Shown in pieces: positions 25,670 to 29,624 of a stretch of 35,577 nucleotides of DNA. Position 1 is the first letter of the stretch. Each line of letters begins with the position of its first letter. The notes under the pieces were generated by a model. It had not been told where the DNA came from. It worked only from the letters and a program-made list of their open reading frames with translations, and ran no database searches. This DNA comes from an uncultured Candidatus Saccharibacteria bacterium (lineage in GTDB: Bacteria > Patescibacteriota > Minisyncoccia > Phycocordibacterales > PALSA-1337), in NCBI GenBank assembly GCA_964655515.1, contig CAZZPF010000009.1, positions 1-35,577 of the forward strand. The letters run 5' to 3'. Made by a program: the position numbers and the translations under genes.

Positions 25670-26084
25670 AATAATGAAATCGCCGACCAATGCTTTTATT
25701 ATAGCAAAGTTTGAAAGAAAGAAATCCAATTAAACCAAGTTGTATTGCAGGAGTAAGGCCAACATTTATAAGAGGAATGATTGGCATATGGGCATTATAC
25801 ATCCAACGCCCCGTACCAAGACCATACCATTCATTGAATATGCCAATTATCATGCCGAGAATAATAATTAGCCATGGTCTTTTTTGCAAAAAAGAAAAAT
25901 ACAAAAAAGGAATGGAAATAGTAGTAATGATTATTGCATCTGCAATAGAAGCTCTTAAAAGTATAAATTCAGTAATTTCCCCACCCATATAATTGTCATA
26001 AAGAAAAACGTGGAGATTTTCCCATATTGCGTTGAGAATTAATGATATGAAGAAAATTAGAGATAATTTTTTTAAGTTCATCAC
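25653..26084 (-). CDS. polytopic membrane protein, function unknown
   Basis: The 143-aa protein is hydrophobic with about four predicted helices. I recognise no motif. Confidence 0.4.
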   Translation of the reverse strand: MMNLKKLSLIFFISLILNAIWENLHVFLYDNYMGGEITEFILLRASIADAIIITTISIPFLYFSFLQKRPWLIIILGMIIGIFNEWYGLGTGRWMYNAHMPIIPLINVGLTPAIQLGLIGFLSFKLCYNKSIGRRFHYYVTKK

Positions 26085-26283
26085 TTTTTAATTACTCATC
26101 TTTATTTATCTTATAAAAATAATGTAACCACTCAATTTTTTTATTTGTTGTCATGTTTTTATTTTTGGGGGTCAGTATCCAAACCTTATTATAAGTATAC
26201 TTGAAGATAAGGAATATATGGAAGCTTTGTATGGGAAGTATTTGGGTATTAAATCTGAAATGGAACTAGTAACACACAAAGTC

Positions 26284-27261
26284 TTATTTTTCTAATTTTA
26301 AATGTTTTTTGAGTTTGTAAGTATTTCCATGTCCAAGTAATCCACGATAAGAATTTACAGTTTCTTTTTTGGGATAACCTCTTAATTTTCTTATTATTTT
26401 TCTTTTTGTAGTTGTACGAATCTGTCTATGATATGGAAAGTGGACCCAGCCCAGAAAATCTACGCCCGAATCGTAGGTCTTTATGTATACTTTGTGCTCA
26501 TGGAGTGTGAGGTGTAATTTCTCATTCAGAAAAACGTGGAGCTTCGGCAGAATGTCTTCTAGATATTTTCTATCGTCAGACAGGATCGCAAAATCATCCG
26601 CATAGCGAAGATAATATTTTACTCGCAGTTCCTGTTTGAGGTACATGTCAAATTCGTGCATGTACACATTCACGAGAAGCTGAGACGTGAGATTGCCAAG
26701 TGGCAGTCCGACACCAGGAGCAGTTGTGTGAAAGCTCGAGACCACTTGATTAATGAGCCAGCGAATATCTGGATCGGCAATATGACGCTCGAGCACTTTC
26801 ATAAGGACCTCATGATCAACGCTTGCAAAGAATTTCCTGATGTCACACTTAAGCACGAAGCATGTGCGTGTGTAATTCTTGGACATCTTGCGGGCAAAAT
26901 CTCTGAAGCGGTCGAGAGCTCGATGTGTTCCCTTATGCTTTCGGCATGAATACGAATCGTGAATAAAGCGGGTGTGGAAATGCCAGTAAAGCTCTTTATA
27001 AATTAAATGATGCAGCACCCTATCACGCACAGTTGCTTTGTGAATGCTGCGAGGCTTTGGATCGGAAATATTAAACGCTGAGTACAGACCGTGAACATAA
27101 GTCTTATTTTTGAGGTCTGTATATAGGCTAGCGATGTTGATTGTGAGCTCGGCTTGAAATTTTATGACATCCTTTTTGTGCTTTTTGCCGCGTAGAAATC
27201 TCTCCCACGTCAGGAGTAAATTTTCGATTGTGATGATAGAATTGTAGGTATGAGTAAACAT
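26284..27261 (-). CDS. DGR-type reverse transcriptase
   Basis: RT motifs 1-7 are present: PRSIHKATVRDRVLHH, SYSCRKHKGTHRAL, VLKCDIRKFFASVDH, GLPLGNLTSQLLVNVYM (the DGR-diagnostic GxxxSQ), YLRYADDFAIL, LHLTLHEHKV and GVDFLGW. I chose the start at the ATG at 27261 (MFTHTYNSI...). The upstream part of the track ORF is antisense to avd. Confidence 0.88.
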   Translation of the reverse strand: MFTHTYNSIITIENLLLTWERFLRGKKHKKDVIKFQAELTINIASLYTDLKNKTYVHGLYSAFNISDPKPRSIHKATVRDRVLHHLIYKELYWHFHTRFIHDSYSCRKHKGTHRALDRFRDFARKMSKNYTRTCFVLKCDIRKFFASVDHEVLMKVLERHIADPDIRWLINQVVSSFHTTAPGVGLPLGNLTSQLLVNVYMHEFDMYLKQELRVKYYLRYADDFAILSDDRKYLEDILPKLHVFLNEKLHLTLHEHKVYIKTYDSGVDFLGWVHFPYHRQIRTTTKRKIIRKLRGYPKKETVNSYRGLLGHGNTYKLKKHLKLEK

Positions 27262-27287
27262 AACGAGCAGAATAAACCAGTAAGTAA

Positions 27288-27296
27288 CCCCCCCCC
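27288..27296. repeat. C9 (G9 on the minus strand) homopolymer tract in the RT/avd divergent intergenic region
   Basis: I read it directly as ...taagtaaCCCCCCCCCacga... It lies 27 nt upstream of the RT ATG and 19 nt upstream of the avd GTG. Confidence 0.9.
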
Positions 27297-27314
27297 ACGA
27301 TTCCACTCGTTCTT

Positions 27315-27656
27315 GTGCGTGCGAAAGAAGCGTACCAATTGTGGCATAGCTCAATCGTAAATTTAAAGCGTGTCGACCGCTACACGATCGGTGCAAAAGT
27401 TGACGATATTTTCCTCTCACTCCTCGAGCTCATATTCAGAGCATGCTTTGCTTATGACAAATTCGAGAAGCTGTCTCTGGTATCTCAGGCTATTGCAAAA
27501 TCCGACCTGCTCAAATTCTTTCTGCAATTGAGCTGGGAACATAAAGTCATTGACCATAAAAGTTACGGTGCACTGATTCTTCTTTTAGATGAAGTCGGTC
27601 GCATGCTTGGAGGTTGGAAGAAAAACCTTGGAGACAAAACTCCCACTAACAAATAG
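27315..27656 (+). CDS. avd: Avd-like four-helix-bundle protein (DGR accessory variability determinant family)
   Basis: The 113-aa protein has a GTG start. RYTIGAKVDDIFLSLLELIFRACFA...LLKFFLQLSWEHKVIDHKSYGALILLLDEVGRMLGGWKK matches the four-helix-bundle (23S rRNA IVS/Avd) family pattern. It lies between the TR and the RT but on the opposite strand. Confidence 0.7.
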   Translation: MRAKEAYQLWHSSIVNLKRVDRYTIGAKVDDIFLSLLELIFRACFAYDKFEKLSLVSQAIAKSDLLKFFLQLSWEHKVIDHKSYGALILLLDEVGRMLGGWKKNLGDKTPTNK

Positions 27657-27673
27657 TGGGAGAAATCATTTGA

Positions 27674-27795
27674 GTTGCAGAAGCAGAGGAAGGCATTGTC
27701 GTCGTTCCAGACATTCTCGAAGTTGCCAAGGTTGAACTTGAAGTGACCGTCCGAGTTGCAGTTCACATTCGGCACCCTGTGGTTGCCGTCGGCAT
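27674..27795 (-). repeat. DGR template repeat (TR)
   Basis: The 122 nt align without gaps to 28142-28263 at an offset of 468. There are 12 mismatches, and every one is a plus-strand T in the TR, which is an A on the sense strand. In the VR frame the TR is rich in AAC (Asn) codons. Confidence 0.9.
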
Positions 27796-28030
27796 ACCTC
27801 ATCAGCAATGTACGACGCGCCGTCTATTTCACCAAGAAGAGCACCGGCTCCCCTTTGAATTTTATTTCGAGTCTTATACTCGCTGGCACATCGCACCGAC
27901 TTATTTGATTTTTTCATGAAAGGCAGCACTCGTCCGCAAGGCTTACCCGACAGACCGCTCGCTGATTCCTTAAACGAGAATTCGATGACATGAAACCGTG
28001 GCCACATGCGCTATCTAGGTTCCGAACAAT

Positions 28031-28038
28031 ATTATACA
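28031..28038 (-). promoter_or_regulatory. candidate -10 element (TG-TATAAT) for a separate TR-containing transcript
   Basis: The minus strand reads tttTGTATAATatt directly after the target-gene hairpin. The -35 region (tcaatt) is weak. Confidence 0.3.
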
Positions 28039-28049
28039 AAATTTAGATA

Positions 28050-28084
28050 GAAAAATTGAGCCCTCGCAGTGAAGCAAGGGCTCA
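28050..28084 (-). terminator. hairpin downstream of the VR and target stop (terminator and/or DGR-associated stem-loop)
   Basis: tgagccct (28057-28064) pairs with agggctca (28077-28084) around a 12-nt loop. On the minus strand it is followed by atttttc. It lies about 50 nt after the stop codon. Confidence 0.5.
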
Positions 28085-28132
28085 AAGGATCTAAGATCCG
28101 AAGAACTAACTGAGTGTCCAAGTTTCCAAGGA

Positions 28133-28822
28133 CTACTCGACGTCGCAGAAGCAGAGGAAGGCATCGTCGTCGATCCAGACAATCCCGAAGCGGCCAAGGT
28201 TGAACTCGAAGCGACCGTCCGAGTGGCAGTCCACAGTCGGCACCCTGTGGTTGCCGTCGGCATCTGCCCAGAGACGATCCTTTTCATCGAAGGAAGCATA
28301 CCACTTGCCTTTCGGCAGTTGGTCGCGCTTCTGATCGAAGACGAGGGACGCGCCTTGTGCACCGGTGTGAATGGCCTTTTGAGTTGCCAAGAACGCCATA
28401 CGCTCTTCCGAGGTAGTGGTCCCACCGACGACTTGCTTGAACGCGCGAACGCGAAGCTTGTCGCCAGGCTTCAGGACCCGAGTCGGATTCGGGAAGTTCT
28501 TGTCGGTGATCTCGTCGTTGTAGTAATAGAACTTTTTACGGTTCTGCTTACCGAACGTCGTGAACCGCTTGTCGTGCACGTAGTTATCGGGCACCGTGAT
28601 GATGCCGAGGTCCACGAGCAGAGCGAACTTTTCGGTGGGTTCCGCAGGAGCTGTGGACTCCGGCTTCTTCCAATCGCCGAAACGTGCTTCCCGATCATCC
28701 GGAGAGAGGTTGTTGAACCGCTCCAACTGGCCGAGGGTGATCTGACCGCTTCGCACCTTTTGAAGGGTGTCGATTTGCAAACCAGCTAATTTGGCCGCAT
28801 CTGCGTCGATGATAGTGTTCAT
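28133..28822 (-). CDS. DGR target (variable) protein, 229 aa, no recognisable signal peptide
   Basis: A good RBS (AAGGAAAGGA) lies 6 nt upstream of the ATG. The gene is high in GC. The C-terminal 41 codons are the VR, and the protein ends ...AFLCFCDVE. Confidence 0.85.
   Translation of the reverse strand: MNTIIDADAAKLAGLQIDTLQKVRSGQITLGQLERFNNLSPDDREARFGDWKKPESTAPAEPTEKFALLVDLGIITVPDNYVHDKRFTTFGKQNRKKFYYYNDEITDKNFPNPTRVLKPGDKLRVRAFKQVVGGTTTSEERMAFLATQKAIHTGAQGASLVFDQKRDQLPKGKWYASFDEKDRLWADADGNHRVPTVDCHSDGRFEFNLGRFGIVWIDDDAFLCFCDVE
28142..28263 (-). repeat. DGR variable repeat (VR)
   Basis: This is the counterpart of the TR. It ends 2 codons before the stop codon. Eleven amino-acid positions differ from the TR-encoded sequence. 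Confidence 0.9.
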
Positions 28823-28894
28823 CGTTTGTCCTTTCCTTACAATGTGCTTTCGGAAATCTGCCGAATCAGTCGCAAGGGCATCTTGCTACTGTAA

Positions 28895-28923
28895 ATTATA
28901 CACCCTACATCATATTTTGTCAA
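28895..28923 (-). promoter_or_regulatory. consensus sigma70-type promoter of the DGR target gene
   Basis: The minus strand reads TTGACA (28923-28918), a 17-nt spacer, then TATAAT (28900-28895). It lies about 70 nt upstream of the target ATG. Confidence 0.6.
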
Positions 28924-28939
28924 TAGCTAGGTTAGAGCC

Positions 28940-28962
28940 AAAAATAGCCCTTGAAATAAGGG
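28940..28962 (-). terminator. small hairpin plus T-tract downstream of tRNA-His
   Basis: The minus strand reads CCCTTatttcAAGGGctattttt. The stem is only 5 bp. Confidence 0.35.
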
Positions 28963-28985
28963 TATTTTGAAGAAAAATATCGCAG

Positions 28986-29057
28986 GGTGACTACTGGGAG
29001 TTGAACCCAGACTAAAAGCTCCACAAGCTTCTGTGCTACCGCTACACCATAGCCACC
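28986..29057 (-). tRNA. tRNA-His (anticodon GTG) with encoded G-1
   Basis: The sequence is G-GTGGCTA...TAGTCAC-C. The anticodon stem GAAGC/GCTTT encloses the loop TTGTGGA. The T-loop is GGTTCAACTCC. No CCA is encoded. Confidence 0.9.
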
Positions 29058-29105
29058 ATATTTCACCTATTTGTATTAAGATGATAGCATCTTTATATCA
29101 GATTT

Positions 29106-29624
29106 ATGACTTCCTTGCCACACCCCTTTTTTAATCGTCCAGTCTTAAGAGTGGCTCGTGACCTCACTGGTTGTCATCTTGTTCGTCAAAAAGACCAAAA
29201 GATTGAGCGATACATGATAACTGAAACCGAAGCTTATGACGGTCATCATGACCTAGCATCTCATGCTTCAAAAGGCAGAACAAAACGAAATGAAATAATG
29301 TTCGGCTCTTCTGGATATTTTTATGTTTACCTTATCTATGGAATGTATTGGATGTTAAATATTGTGACAGGACCAAAGGGCTACCCTGCCGCCGTGCTTA
29401 TTCGTGGCATTGAAGGATATGATGGACCAGGAAAATTGACAAGAAAATTAGGTATAAAAGGAAAACTCAATGGAAAAAAGGTTGAACAAAAATCGGGGTT
29501 GTGGATTGAACCAAGAGAAAAGGATTTTAAAACTAAAAAAATCACTCGCGCAACACGAATCGGCATTGATTATGCCGGACCAATTTGGTCAAAGAAAAAA
29601 TACAGGTTTGTGTTTAAGGAATAG
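29106..29624 (+). CDS. mpg: DNA-3-methyladenine glycosylase (Mpg/AAG family)
   Basis: It reads FFNRPVLRVARDLTGCHLV, ITETEAYDGHHDLASHA, GRTKRNEIMFGSSGYFYVYLIYGMYWMLNIV. Confidence 0.85.
   Translation: MTSLPHPFFNRPVLRVARDLTGCHLVRQKDQKIERYMITETEAYDGHHDLASHASKGRTKRNEIMFGSSGYFYVYLIYGMYWMLNIVTGPKGYPAAVLIRGIEGYDGPGKLTRKLGIKGKLNGKKVEQKSGLWIEPREKDFKTKKITRATRIGIDYAGPIWSKKKYRFVFKE

Follow-up and report, generated by a model that had tools for sequence, protein, structure and literature searches.

Covarying RNA structure around the template repeat and a simple-sequence repeat in the inverted avd of a CPR-type DGR

The best described template RNA of a DGR is that of the Bordetella phage element (BPP-1). 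In this element avd lies upstream of the template repeat (TR) and is co-oriented with it, and a 140-nt spacer between the TR and brt is required for priming (PMC6182149; bioRxiv 10.1101/2023.10.23.563531). In the phage RNA, an 11-bp stem-loop at Sp3-33 binds all five Avd protomers, and a duplex joins sequences upstream and downstream of the TR (bioRxiv 10.1101/2023.10.23.563531). Handa et al. surveyed the flanks of the TR over 40 nt upstream and 100 nt downstream and predicted 9-bp stem-loops just 3' of the TR in 207 of 278 DGRs, those of CPR included (bioRxiv 10.1101/2023.10.23.563531). A different layout was catalogued by Wu, Gingery, Abebe et al. (Nucleic Acids Res 2018, PMC5758913). According to the searchable text of that paper, architecture B3, "TR-(avd)-RT", makes up 90% of their CPR set, and at least two transcription units are needed, as the components lie on both strands.

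We analysed a window of 35,577 nucleotides from an uncultured Candidatus Saccharibacteria bacterium (GenBank assembly GCA_964655515.1, contig CAZZPF010000009.1). Its minus strand carries a complete DGR, consisting of target, TR and reverse transcriptase (RT), while avd alone is on the plus strand. The parts of the cassette are as follows.

28133..28822, minus strand: target gene, 229 aa, an ORF whose 3' end is the VR (28142-28263)
27674..27795, minus strand: TR, from its gapless alignment with the VR
27297..27656, plus strand: avd coding region 3' of a C-tract (Avd fold, four-helix bundle family), from the Pfam bAvd match, a conserved P-L-V-L and the relatives
26284..27261, minus strand: DGR reverse transcriptase, 325 aa, from the RVT_1 match and motifs

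The VR (28263->28142) and the TR (27795->27674) align without gaps over 122 nt with 12 mismatches, and as all 12 fall at TR adenines, the TR, the VR and the target gene are assigned to the minus strand. Two codons (6 nt) separate the end of the VR from the target's stop codon. In a profile search the RT ORF (27261->26284) matched RVT_1 with an E value of 8e-25; it carries LGNLTSQ and YADD, which fit the DGR-type motifs [ILV]GxxxSQ and YxDD when read in the ORF, and all the relatives of this RT occur within TR/VR cassettes. The plus-strand ORF ending at 27656 matched Pfam bAvd (PF22296) at 48.5 bits, above the cut-off of 40. The same ORF scored 52.5 bits against NCBIfam DivGenRetAVD, under that model's cut-off of 80, and in a sequence search of the PDB its best match was bAvd 4dwl at an E value of only 0.65. 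The adenine-specific TR/VR pair, the RT, the VR at the 3' end of the target and the Avd together identify the cassette as a DGR.

These assignments bear out what an earlier note on this DNA had read from the letters, namely that TR, RT and target share the minus strand and that an Avd-like gene, for which it had proposed an HMM check, stands between TR and RT on the plus strand; the bAvd match shows this gene to be genuine. The stop codon of avd (27654-27656) is indeed 17 nt from the 3' end of the TR, avd is antisense to both TR and RT, and any TR-strand sequence that follows the 3' end of the TR overlaps avd, as the note had stated.

Next, we compared the layout with that of related cassettes. 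One genome per species was scanned for relatives of the RT, and the best 80 of the 577 found (56-84% identity) were kept, nearly all of them from CPR/Patescibacteria MAGs or from genomes labelled only as bacteria. Among these 80, avd was opposite in strand to the RT in 74 of the 74 loci with an Avd match and immediately upstream of the RT in 73; the remaining six loci were without upstream DNA. A TR whose mismatches are biased to A was present in about 60 loci, with its end 0-25 nt away from the stop codon of avd. The same genome also holds a second cassette (contig C15, 17478-19368; L081), which has the same layout and is cut by the contig end. It comprises an AAC-rich repeat resembling a TR, a hairpin with a T-run, avd in inverted orientation, a G10 tract and the first RT codons. 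By hand reading, the avd of this cassette is one base out of frame. The body of a second RT was not found in this genome's assembly, and a search of the genome for a co-oriented avd gave none, the inverted avd on C15 being the only other Avd.

The order TR, avd, RT with avd reversed is that of architecture B3. As far as the searchable text of Wu et al. 2018 (PMC5758913) describes it, B3 has target, TR, reversed avd and RT in the same order and orientation as the window and likewise occurs in CPR/Patescibacteria hosts, and we observed no difference in layout. We conclude that the window holds an ordinary CPR-type DGR of architecture B3, in which the inverted avd is the norm of the lineage and not a rearrangement; the layout itself is not new, having been catalogued since 2018. 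Hence the view of the earlier note that the cassette departs from the rule did not hold, although its reasoning that such a layout needs more than one transcription unit was correct and agrees with what the available text of Wu et al. says. Compared with BPP-1, the window is alike in its A-specific TR-to-VR mutagenesis and its Avd accessory protein, but its avd is inverted and lies between TR and RT. The searchable text of PMC5758913 does not describe RNA structure around the TR, a hairpin in the 3' end of avd or a repeat in its 5' end, and it is these that we turned to.

The region immediately 3' of the TR contains three elements.

27663..27673, minus strand: 11-nt flank from the TR to the stem-loop, of which UGAUUU (27668->27663) pairs with AAAUCA of the leader described below
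27640..27662, minus strand: conserved 9-bp stem-loop (CUCCCACUA-UUUGU-UAGUGGGAG), from hairpin prediction and covariance model R1, spanning the avd stop codon
27632..27639, minus strand: U-tract UUUUGUCU directly after the stem, from the relatives

The gap between TR and stem-loop has a median of 11 nt in the relatives, and in the window the avd stop is located in the upper stem of the hairpin 27662->27640. Model R1, built from 22 relatives, recovered the stem-loop at the same place in about 60 loci. In the hairpin alignment, which was fitted to the model and leans to pairing, 95.3% of the cells were paired and 134 cells carried double changes. With the same model-fitted alignment, covariation was 0.554, while shuffled alignments gave 0.179 (0 of 500 as high) and slid controls about 0.06, and G-U/U-G cells numbered 58 against 3 A-C/C-A cells. 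This excess of G-U over A-C indicates that selection acts on the stem-loop in the TR-sense RNA rather than in the avd mRNA. At least four T were present among the first five nt past the stem in 61 of 61 loci, irrespective of the frame or stop position of avd. In 44 of these 61 loci the hairpin contains the avd stop, whereas in 16 the stop lies on the 5' side of the hairpin and in one on the 3' side. As the position of the stop varies and the U-tract is universal, the conservation of the hairpin is not a by-product of avd codons.

The stem-loop has a median energy of -13.5 kcal/mol across the relatives, and a GC-rich stem followed by a U-tract is the form of an intrinsic terminator. It also stands, like the stem-loop of BPP-1, a few nt 3' of the TR and is of similar length (about 9-11 bp), so that in position it corresponds to the phage element; binding of Avd would follow by analogy. 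The U-tract behind it, found in all 61 loci, is unlike BPP-1. On the evidence of these alignments, we regard the stem-loop and its U-tract as a candidate Avd-binding element and a candidate intrinsic terminator of the TR RNA. In the window, the U-tract UUUUGUCU is interrupted by G and C, and read-through of the hairpin is therefore possible.

Beyond the stem-loop the picture is different from that of the phage. BPP-1 has a large structured domain 3' of its TR (primer strand, stop element, thumb ring and RT-binding stem-loop), whereas in the window-type cassettes nothing is structurally conserved past the first stem-loop: over the next 170 nt, antisense to avd, RNAalifold returned 0 consensus pairs in 22 loci, and the substitutions in this stretch follow the codon periodicity of avd. 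Thus we found in these 170 nt no sign of a structured spacer like the Bordetella one of about 140 nt, and the conflict that the earlier note had seen between such a spacer and the inverted avd seems absent, only the stem-loop and the U-tract being conserved 3' of the TR and the structured domain lying 5' of it. The RNA fold of the TR region that the note had proposed was informative only in part. Folded alone, 27830->27520 of the window was no better than its shuffles (z -0.92), and it is the alignments of the relatives that show covarying structure.

The folded domain of these cassettes, of about 230 nt, lies between the VR and the TR, in a spacer of conserved length (about 300-400 nt). In 19 close relatives this spacer contains, in order, the terminator hairpin of the target, a -10 box and a folded leader. 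The corresponding features of the window are given below.

28058..28083, minus strand: terminator-like hairpin of the target gene, a 12-bp stem plus TTTTTC
28031..28036, minus strand: -10 box TATAAT with TG before it, from conservation; candidate TR RNA promoter
27796..28024, minus strand: structured leader RNA, about 230 nt, from RNAalifold over 19 loci
28008->27989, 27977->27914 (a domain), 27896-27885 with 27821-27810, 27882->27868 and 27855->27834, minus strand: helices of the leader
27897..27913, minus strand: A-rich single-stranded segment of the leader, AAAAAUCAAAUAAGUCG, complementary to the 3' flank of the TR

The terminator hairpin of the target showed compensatory changes at all 10 aligned pairs, with 99.5% of cells paired in the 19 relatives. 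Most of the 19 loci have TATAAT, TATACT or TACAAT as the -10 box, with the first T and A invariant throughout; a simple sigma-70 consensus scan called no promoter in 27200-28100, and the box is visible by conservation only. We infer from its conservation and position that it is the promoter of the TR RNA, and the 5' end of the leader at about 28024 is a guess taken from it.

For the leader, RNAalifold predicted eight helices with 53 pairs over the 19 loci, or 63 pairs together with the terminator hairpin of the target. Compensatory double changes were observed at 47 of these 63 pairs, and 96.6% of the cells were paired. Covariation over leader and terminator was 0.626 against 0.303 in shuffled alignments (0 of 500), and slid controls reached at most 0.17. 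An Rfam search at E<=1 across 26000-29200 gave no family for the leader and returned only a tRNA (28986-29056) and one chance match. A minus-strand ORF at 27666-28007 (113 aa) was considered as a gene and rejected: it has no family match, and the region shows compensatory helices and indels that are not multiples of three. A leader domain in this place would have escaped the survey of Handa et al., since only 40 nt upstream of the TR were examined there.

The leader and the 3' flank of the TR also appear to be joined. Across 46 loci, pairing between the A-rich segment and the flank of the same locus had an energy of -4.12 kcal/mol, compared with -3.01 +/- 0.23 when the partners were permuted (0 of 5000 as stable), and the pairing showed compensatory switches, for example AAAUGAAGA:UCUUCAUUU against AAAUAAAGA:UCUUUAUUU. 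The duplex is short and A-U rich, with 6 bp only in the window. With this length in mind, it is the counterpart of the upstream/downstream duplex around the TR of BPP-1, same-locus pairing being better than permuted pairing. We also looked by hand for a template:primer duplex formed by the leader with the 3' end of the TR, and saw no convincing candidate.

Taken together, these observations make it probable that the B3 cassette is expressed as three transcription units, one of them a self-contained template RNA of about 390 nt (~28024->27632). The target mRNA would end at its own terminator hairpin (28083->28058). The template RNA would begin past the conserved -10 box (28036->28031), fold into the leader of about 230 nt, carry the TR and end at the stem-loop and U-tract (27662->27632), so that its overlap with avd would be about 22 nt and confined to the last codons and the stop. 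The A-rich strand of the leader would pair with the 11-nt flank and clamp the TR, as the duplex does in the Bordetella phage RNA, and the stem-loop would take the position of the phage Avd-binding stem-loop. In the third unit avd and RT would be expressed divergently, with starts overlapping head to head by 12 nt, and a slippery C-tract in the 5' coding region would set the frame of avd. Of this model, the layout and its conservation, the covarying structures with their strand and the frame relations are observed, whereas the promoter, the 3' end of the RNA, the binding of protein, the site of priming and a possible switch at the C-tract are inferred from sequence comparison. The collision of a TR-to-RT transcript with avd transcription, which the earlier note had foreseen, would be avoided if the hairpin terminates. 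The note had left two alternatives, separate transcripts for TR and RT or antisense regulation of avd. As there seems to be no functional spacer beneath the inverted avd and the hairpin is terminator-like, the first of them, separate TR and RT transcripts, is favoured by the comparison.

The alternative to separate transcripts that survives best is that TR and RT are on one long minus-strand transcript as in Bordetella, with the stem-loop acting as an Avd-binding element or a leaky attenuator and with 412 nt antisense to avd serving as spacer and 5' UTR and colliding with avd transcription. The G and C that break the U-tract would allow this, no convincing RT promoter was predicted in the window, and the Bordetella spacer is needed for priming. 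However, the 170 nt past the hairpin are without conserved structure in the very loci where leader and hairpin covary strongly, the U-tract is universal, and in several relatives TAnnnT boxes can be seen by eye between a G-run and the ATG of the RT. We therefore consider such read-through unlikely.

We then examined where avd begins, as the earlier note had placed its start at GTG 27315. Among 25 relatives, the codon equivalent to this GTG is GTN, ACN, GCT or TCG, and is GTG in only 9, whereas the four codons before it are an invariant P-L-V-L in which all the third positions are free. Since the codon is not conserved and a conserved P-L-V-L precedes it, GTG 27315 is not the start of avd; the conserved coding region extends upstream to a tract of nine C. 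No stop interrupts the frame as far upstream as 27288, where this run starts, but TAA 27285-27287 then closes it. Two features lie in this region.

27288..27296, plus strand: C9 simple-sequence repeat within the 5' coding region of avd; read on the RT strand it is a G9 tract 26 nt before the RT ATG
27250..27252, plus strand: candidate avd start ATG, 12 nt inside the RT and the only ATG open into the C-run

Read on the opposite strand, ATG 27250 is CAT, the His codon at position 4 of the RT, and the two coincide in this way in 51 of 69 loci; if this ATG is used, the starts of avd and RT overlap head to head over 27250-27261. With nine C the avd frame is out of register with this ATG, the reading from which is a 36-aa dead end (hand reading); C10 or C7 would join them. 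In 70 of 73 loci a repeat, either C6-C14, (CT)n or (CA)n, occupies the site of the C9 tract. Two relatives, L022 and L011, clearly lack a repeat, and in both of them avd is in frame from the equivalent ATG. With respect to the nearest open ATG, 19 of 69 loci are in frame, 31 have one extra base and 19 have two, and the loci with dinucleotide repeats are mostly in frame. This uneven distribution could be due to +1 slippage on CCC-C in translation, to homopolymer assembly bias or to selection for the OFF state.

Simple-sequence repeats that act as contingency loci are known from the intragenic poly-G/C tracts of Campylobacter, Neisseria and Haemophilus. The avd repeat resembles them: it is a slippage-prone repeat in the 5' coding region whose length differs among relatives and sets the reading frame. 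It differs from them in its setting, an accessory gene of a CPR retroelement head to head with the start of the RT, and in the frames being unevenly spread (31 of 69 with one extra base); the comparison here is across relatives only. Two metagenome scans gave no near-identical strain with another length of the C-run; they yielded three chance matches and a single relative, L086, which has C11 and is out of frame too. From these frame relations the C-tract looks like a contingency-type gate on Avd, with slippage during expression or a homopolymer assembly error as alternatives.

Some relatives show a hairpin at the 5' end of avd (GCACAAGC...GCTTGTGC), which we did not retain as an element: the closest relatives lack it, and the P-L-V-L codons account for the sequence pattern. 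We also rejected the idea that the G-run serves the RT as a Shine-Dalgarno site, as its distance from the ATG is 13-26 nt. On the RT strand of many relatives, the G-run is directly followed by a TAnnnT hexamer (TAATAT, TAGAAT, TAAAAT or TATAAT) 8-20 nt before the RT ATG, and the repeat may thus also lie in the spacer of an RT promoter. On the avd side, a TAGAAT box is located 7 nt upstream of ATG 27250 and is present in relative L086 too.

As assembled, with nine C, avd is without a canonical in-frame start, and this copy might be off or inactive. On this reading the copy is switched off or decaying, makes no full-length Avd and leaves the inverted gene silent at present. This would agree with the TAA that closes the frame just 5' of the C-run, with the dead end reached from ATG 27250, with the lack of conservation of GTG 27315 as a start and with the avd on C15, which is out of frame by one base as well. 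Against it, every other part of the cassette is intact, all 12 TR/VR differences are at adenines, and the repeat is kept in 70 of 73 loci although most of these are out of frame. A reversible switch, slippage in expression or an assembly error in the homopolymer fits this better than decay, and we hold a copy that is switched off or decaying to be improbable.

Least probable of all, in our view, is the second alternative of the earlier note, a built-in antisense regulation in which TR RNA and avd mRNA overlap at their 3' ends and a duplex or transcriptional interference couples the levels of Avd and TR RNA: the overlap is conserved (median 22 nt, with the avd stop lying within the hairpin or on its 5' side in 60 of 61 loci) and the hairpin is without a U-tract in the avd direction, so that avd transcripts may run into the antisense of the TR, but the shared stretch is short and folds on its own into a stable intramolecular hairpin, the asymmetry of G-U and A-C points to selection on the TR-sense strand only, and the overlap could be accounted for just as well by the compaction of a small genome. 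Such regulation would be compatible with the three transcription units, and the comparison neither supports nor excludes it.

Returning to the three-unit cassette, the interest of the locus lies in what the relatives suggest of a rearranged template RNA and a repeat-gated avd. One may go further and propose, with somewhat less than even confidence, that in B3 DGRs the protein-binding and priming domain has moved 5' of the TR, that only a terminator-like Avd-binding hairpin has been left in the end of the inverted avd, and that hypermutation is gated at random by the avd repeat. Neither a template RNA domain 5' of the TR nor a repeat gate in avd was found described in the searchable literature on DGRs with homopolymers, phase variation or structured RNA. 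If the template RNA of the most numerous DGR lineage is indeed compact and self-standing, at about 390 nt, and has its control domain on the 5' side of the TR, the model based on Bordetella, with a downstream spacer and cis-priming at Sp A56, is not directly transferable to it. The comparative result could matter for the mechanism and the engineering of DGRs, and it defines an RNA for in vitro work with RT-Avd. The conserved repeat in avd would turn targeted hypermutation into a random on/off trait in ultra-small bacteria.

Two further observations concern the surroundings of the target gene. The tRNA gene at 28986-29056 (minus strand; Rfam, 60.9 bits) lies 164 nt upstream of the start of the target gene, so that the cassette abuts a tRNA. 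Right after the VR and the target stop, at 28090-28141 on the minus strand, there are four to five CTTNG-like motifs (for example CCTTGG, ACTTGG, TCTTCGG, TCTTAGA) spaced by about 10 nt. These motifs are conserved in 19 relatives and may be a target-site recognition element for the integration of cDNA.
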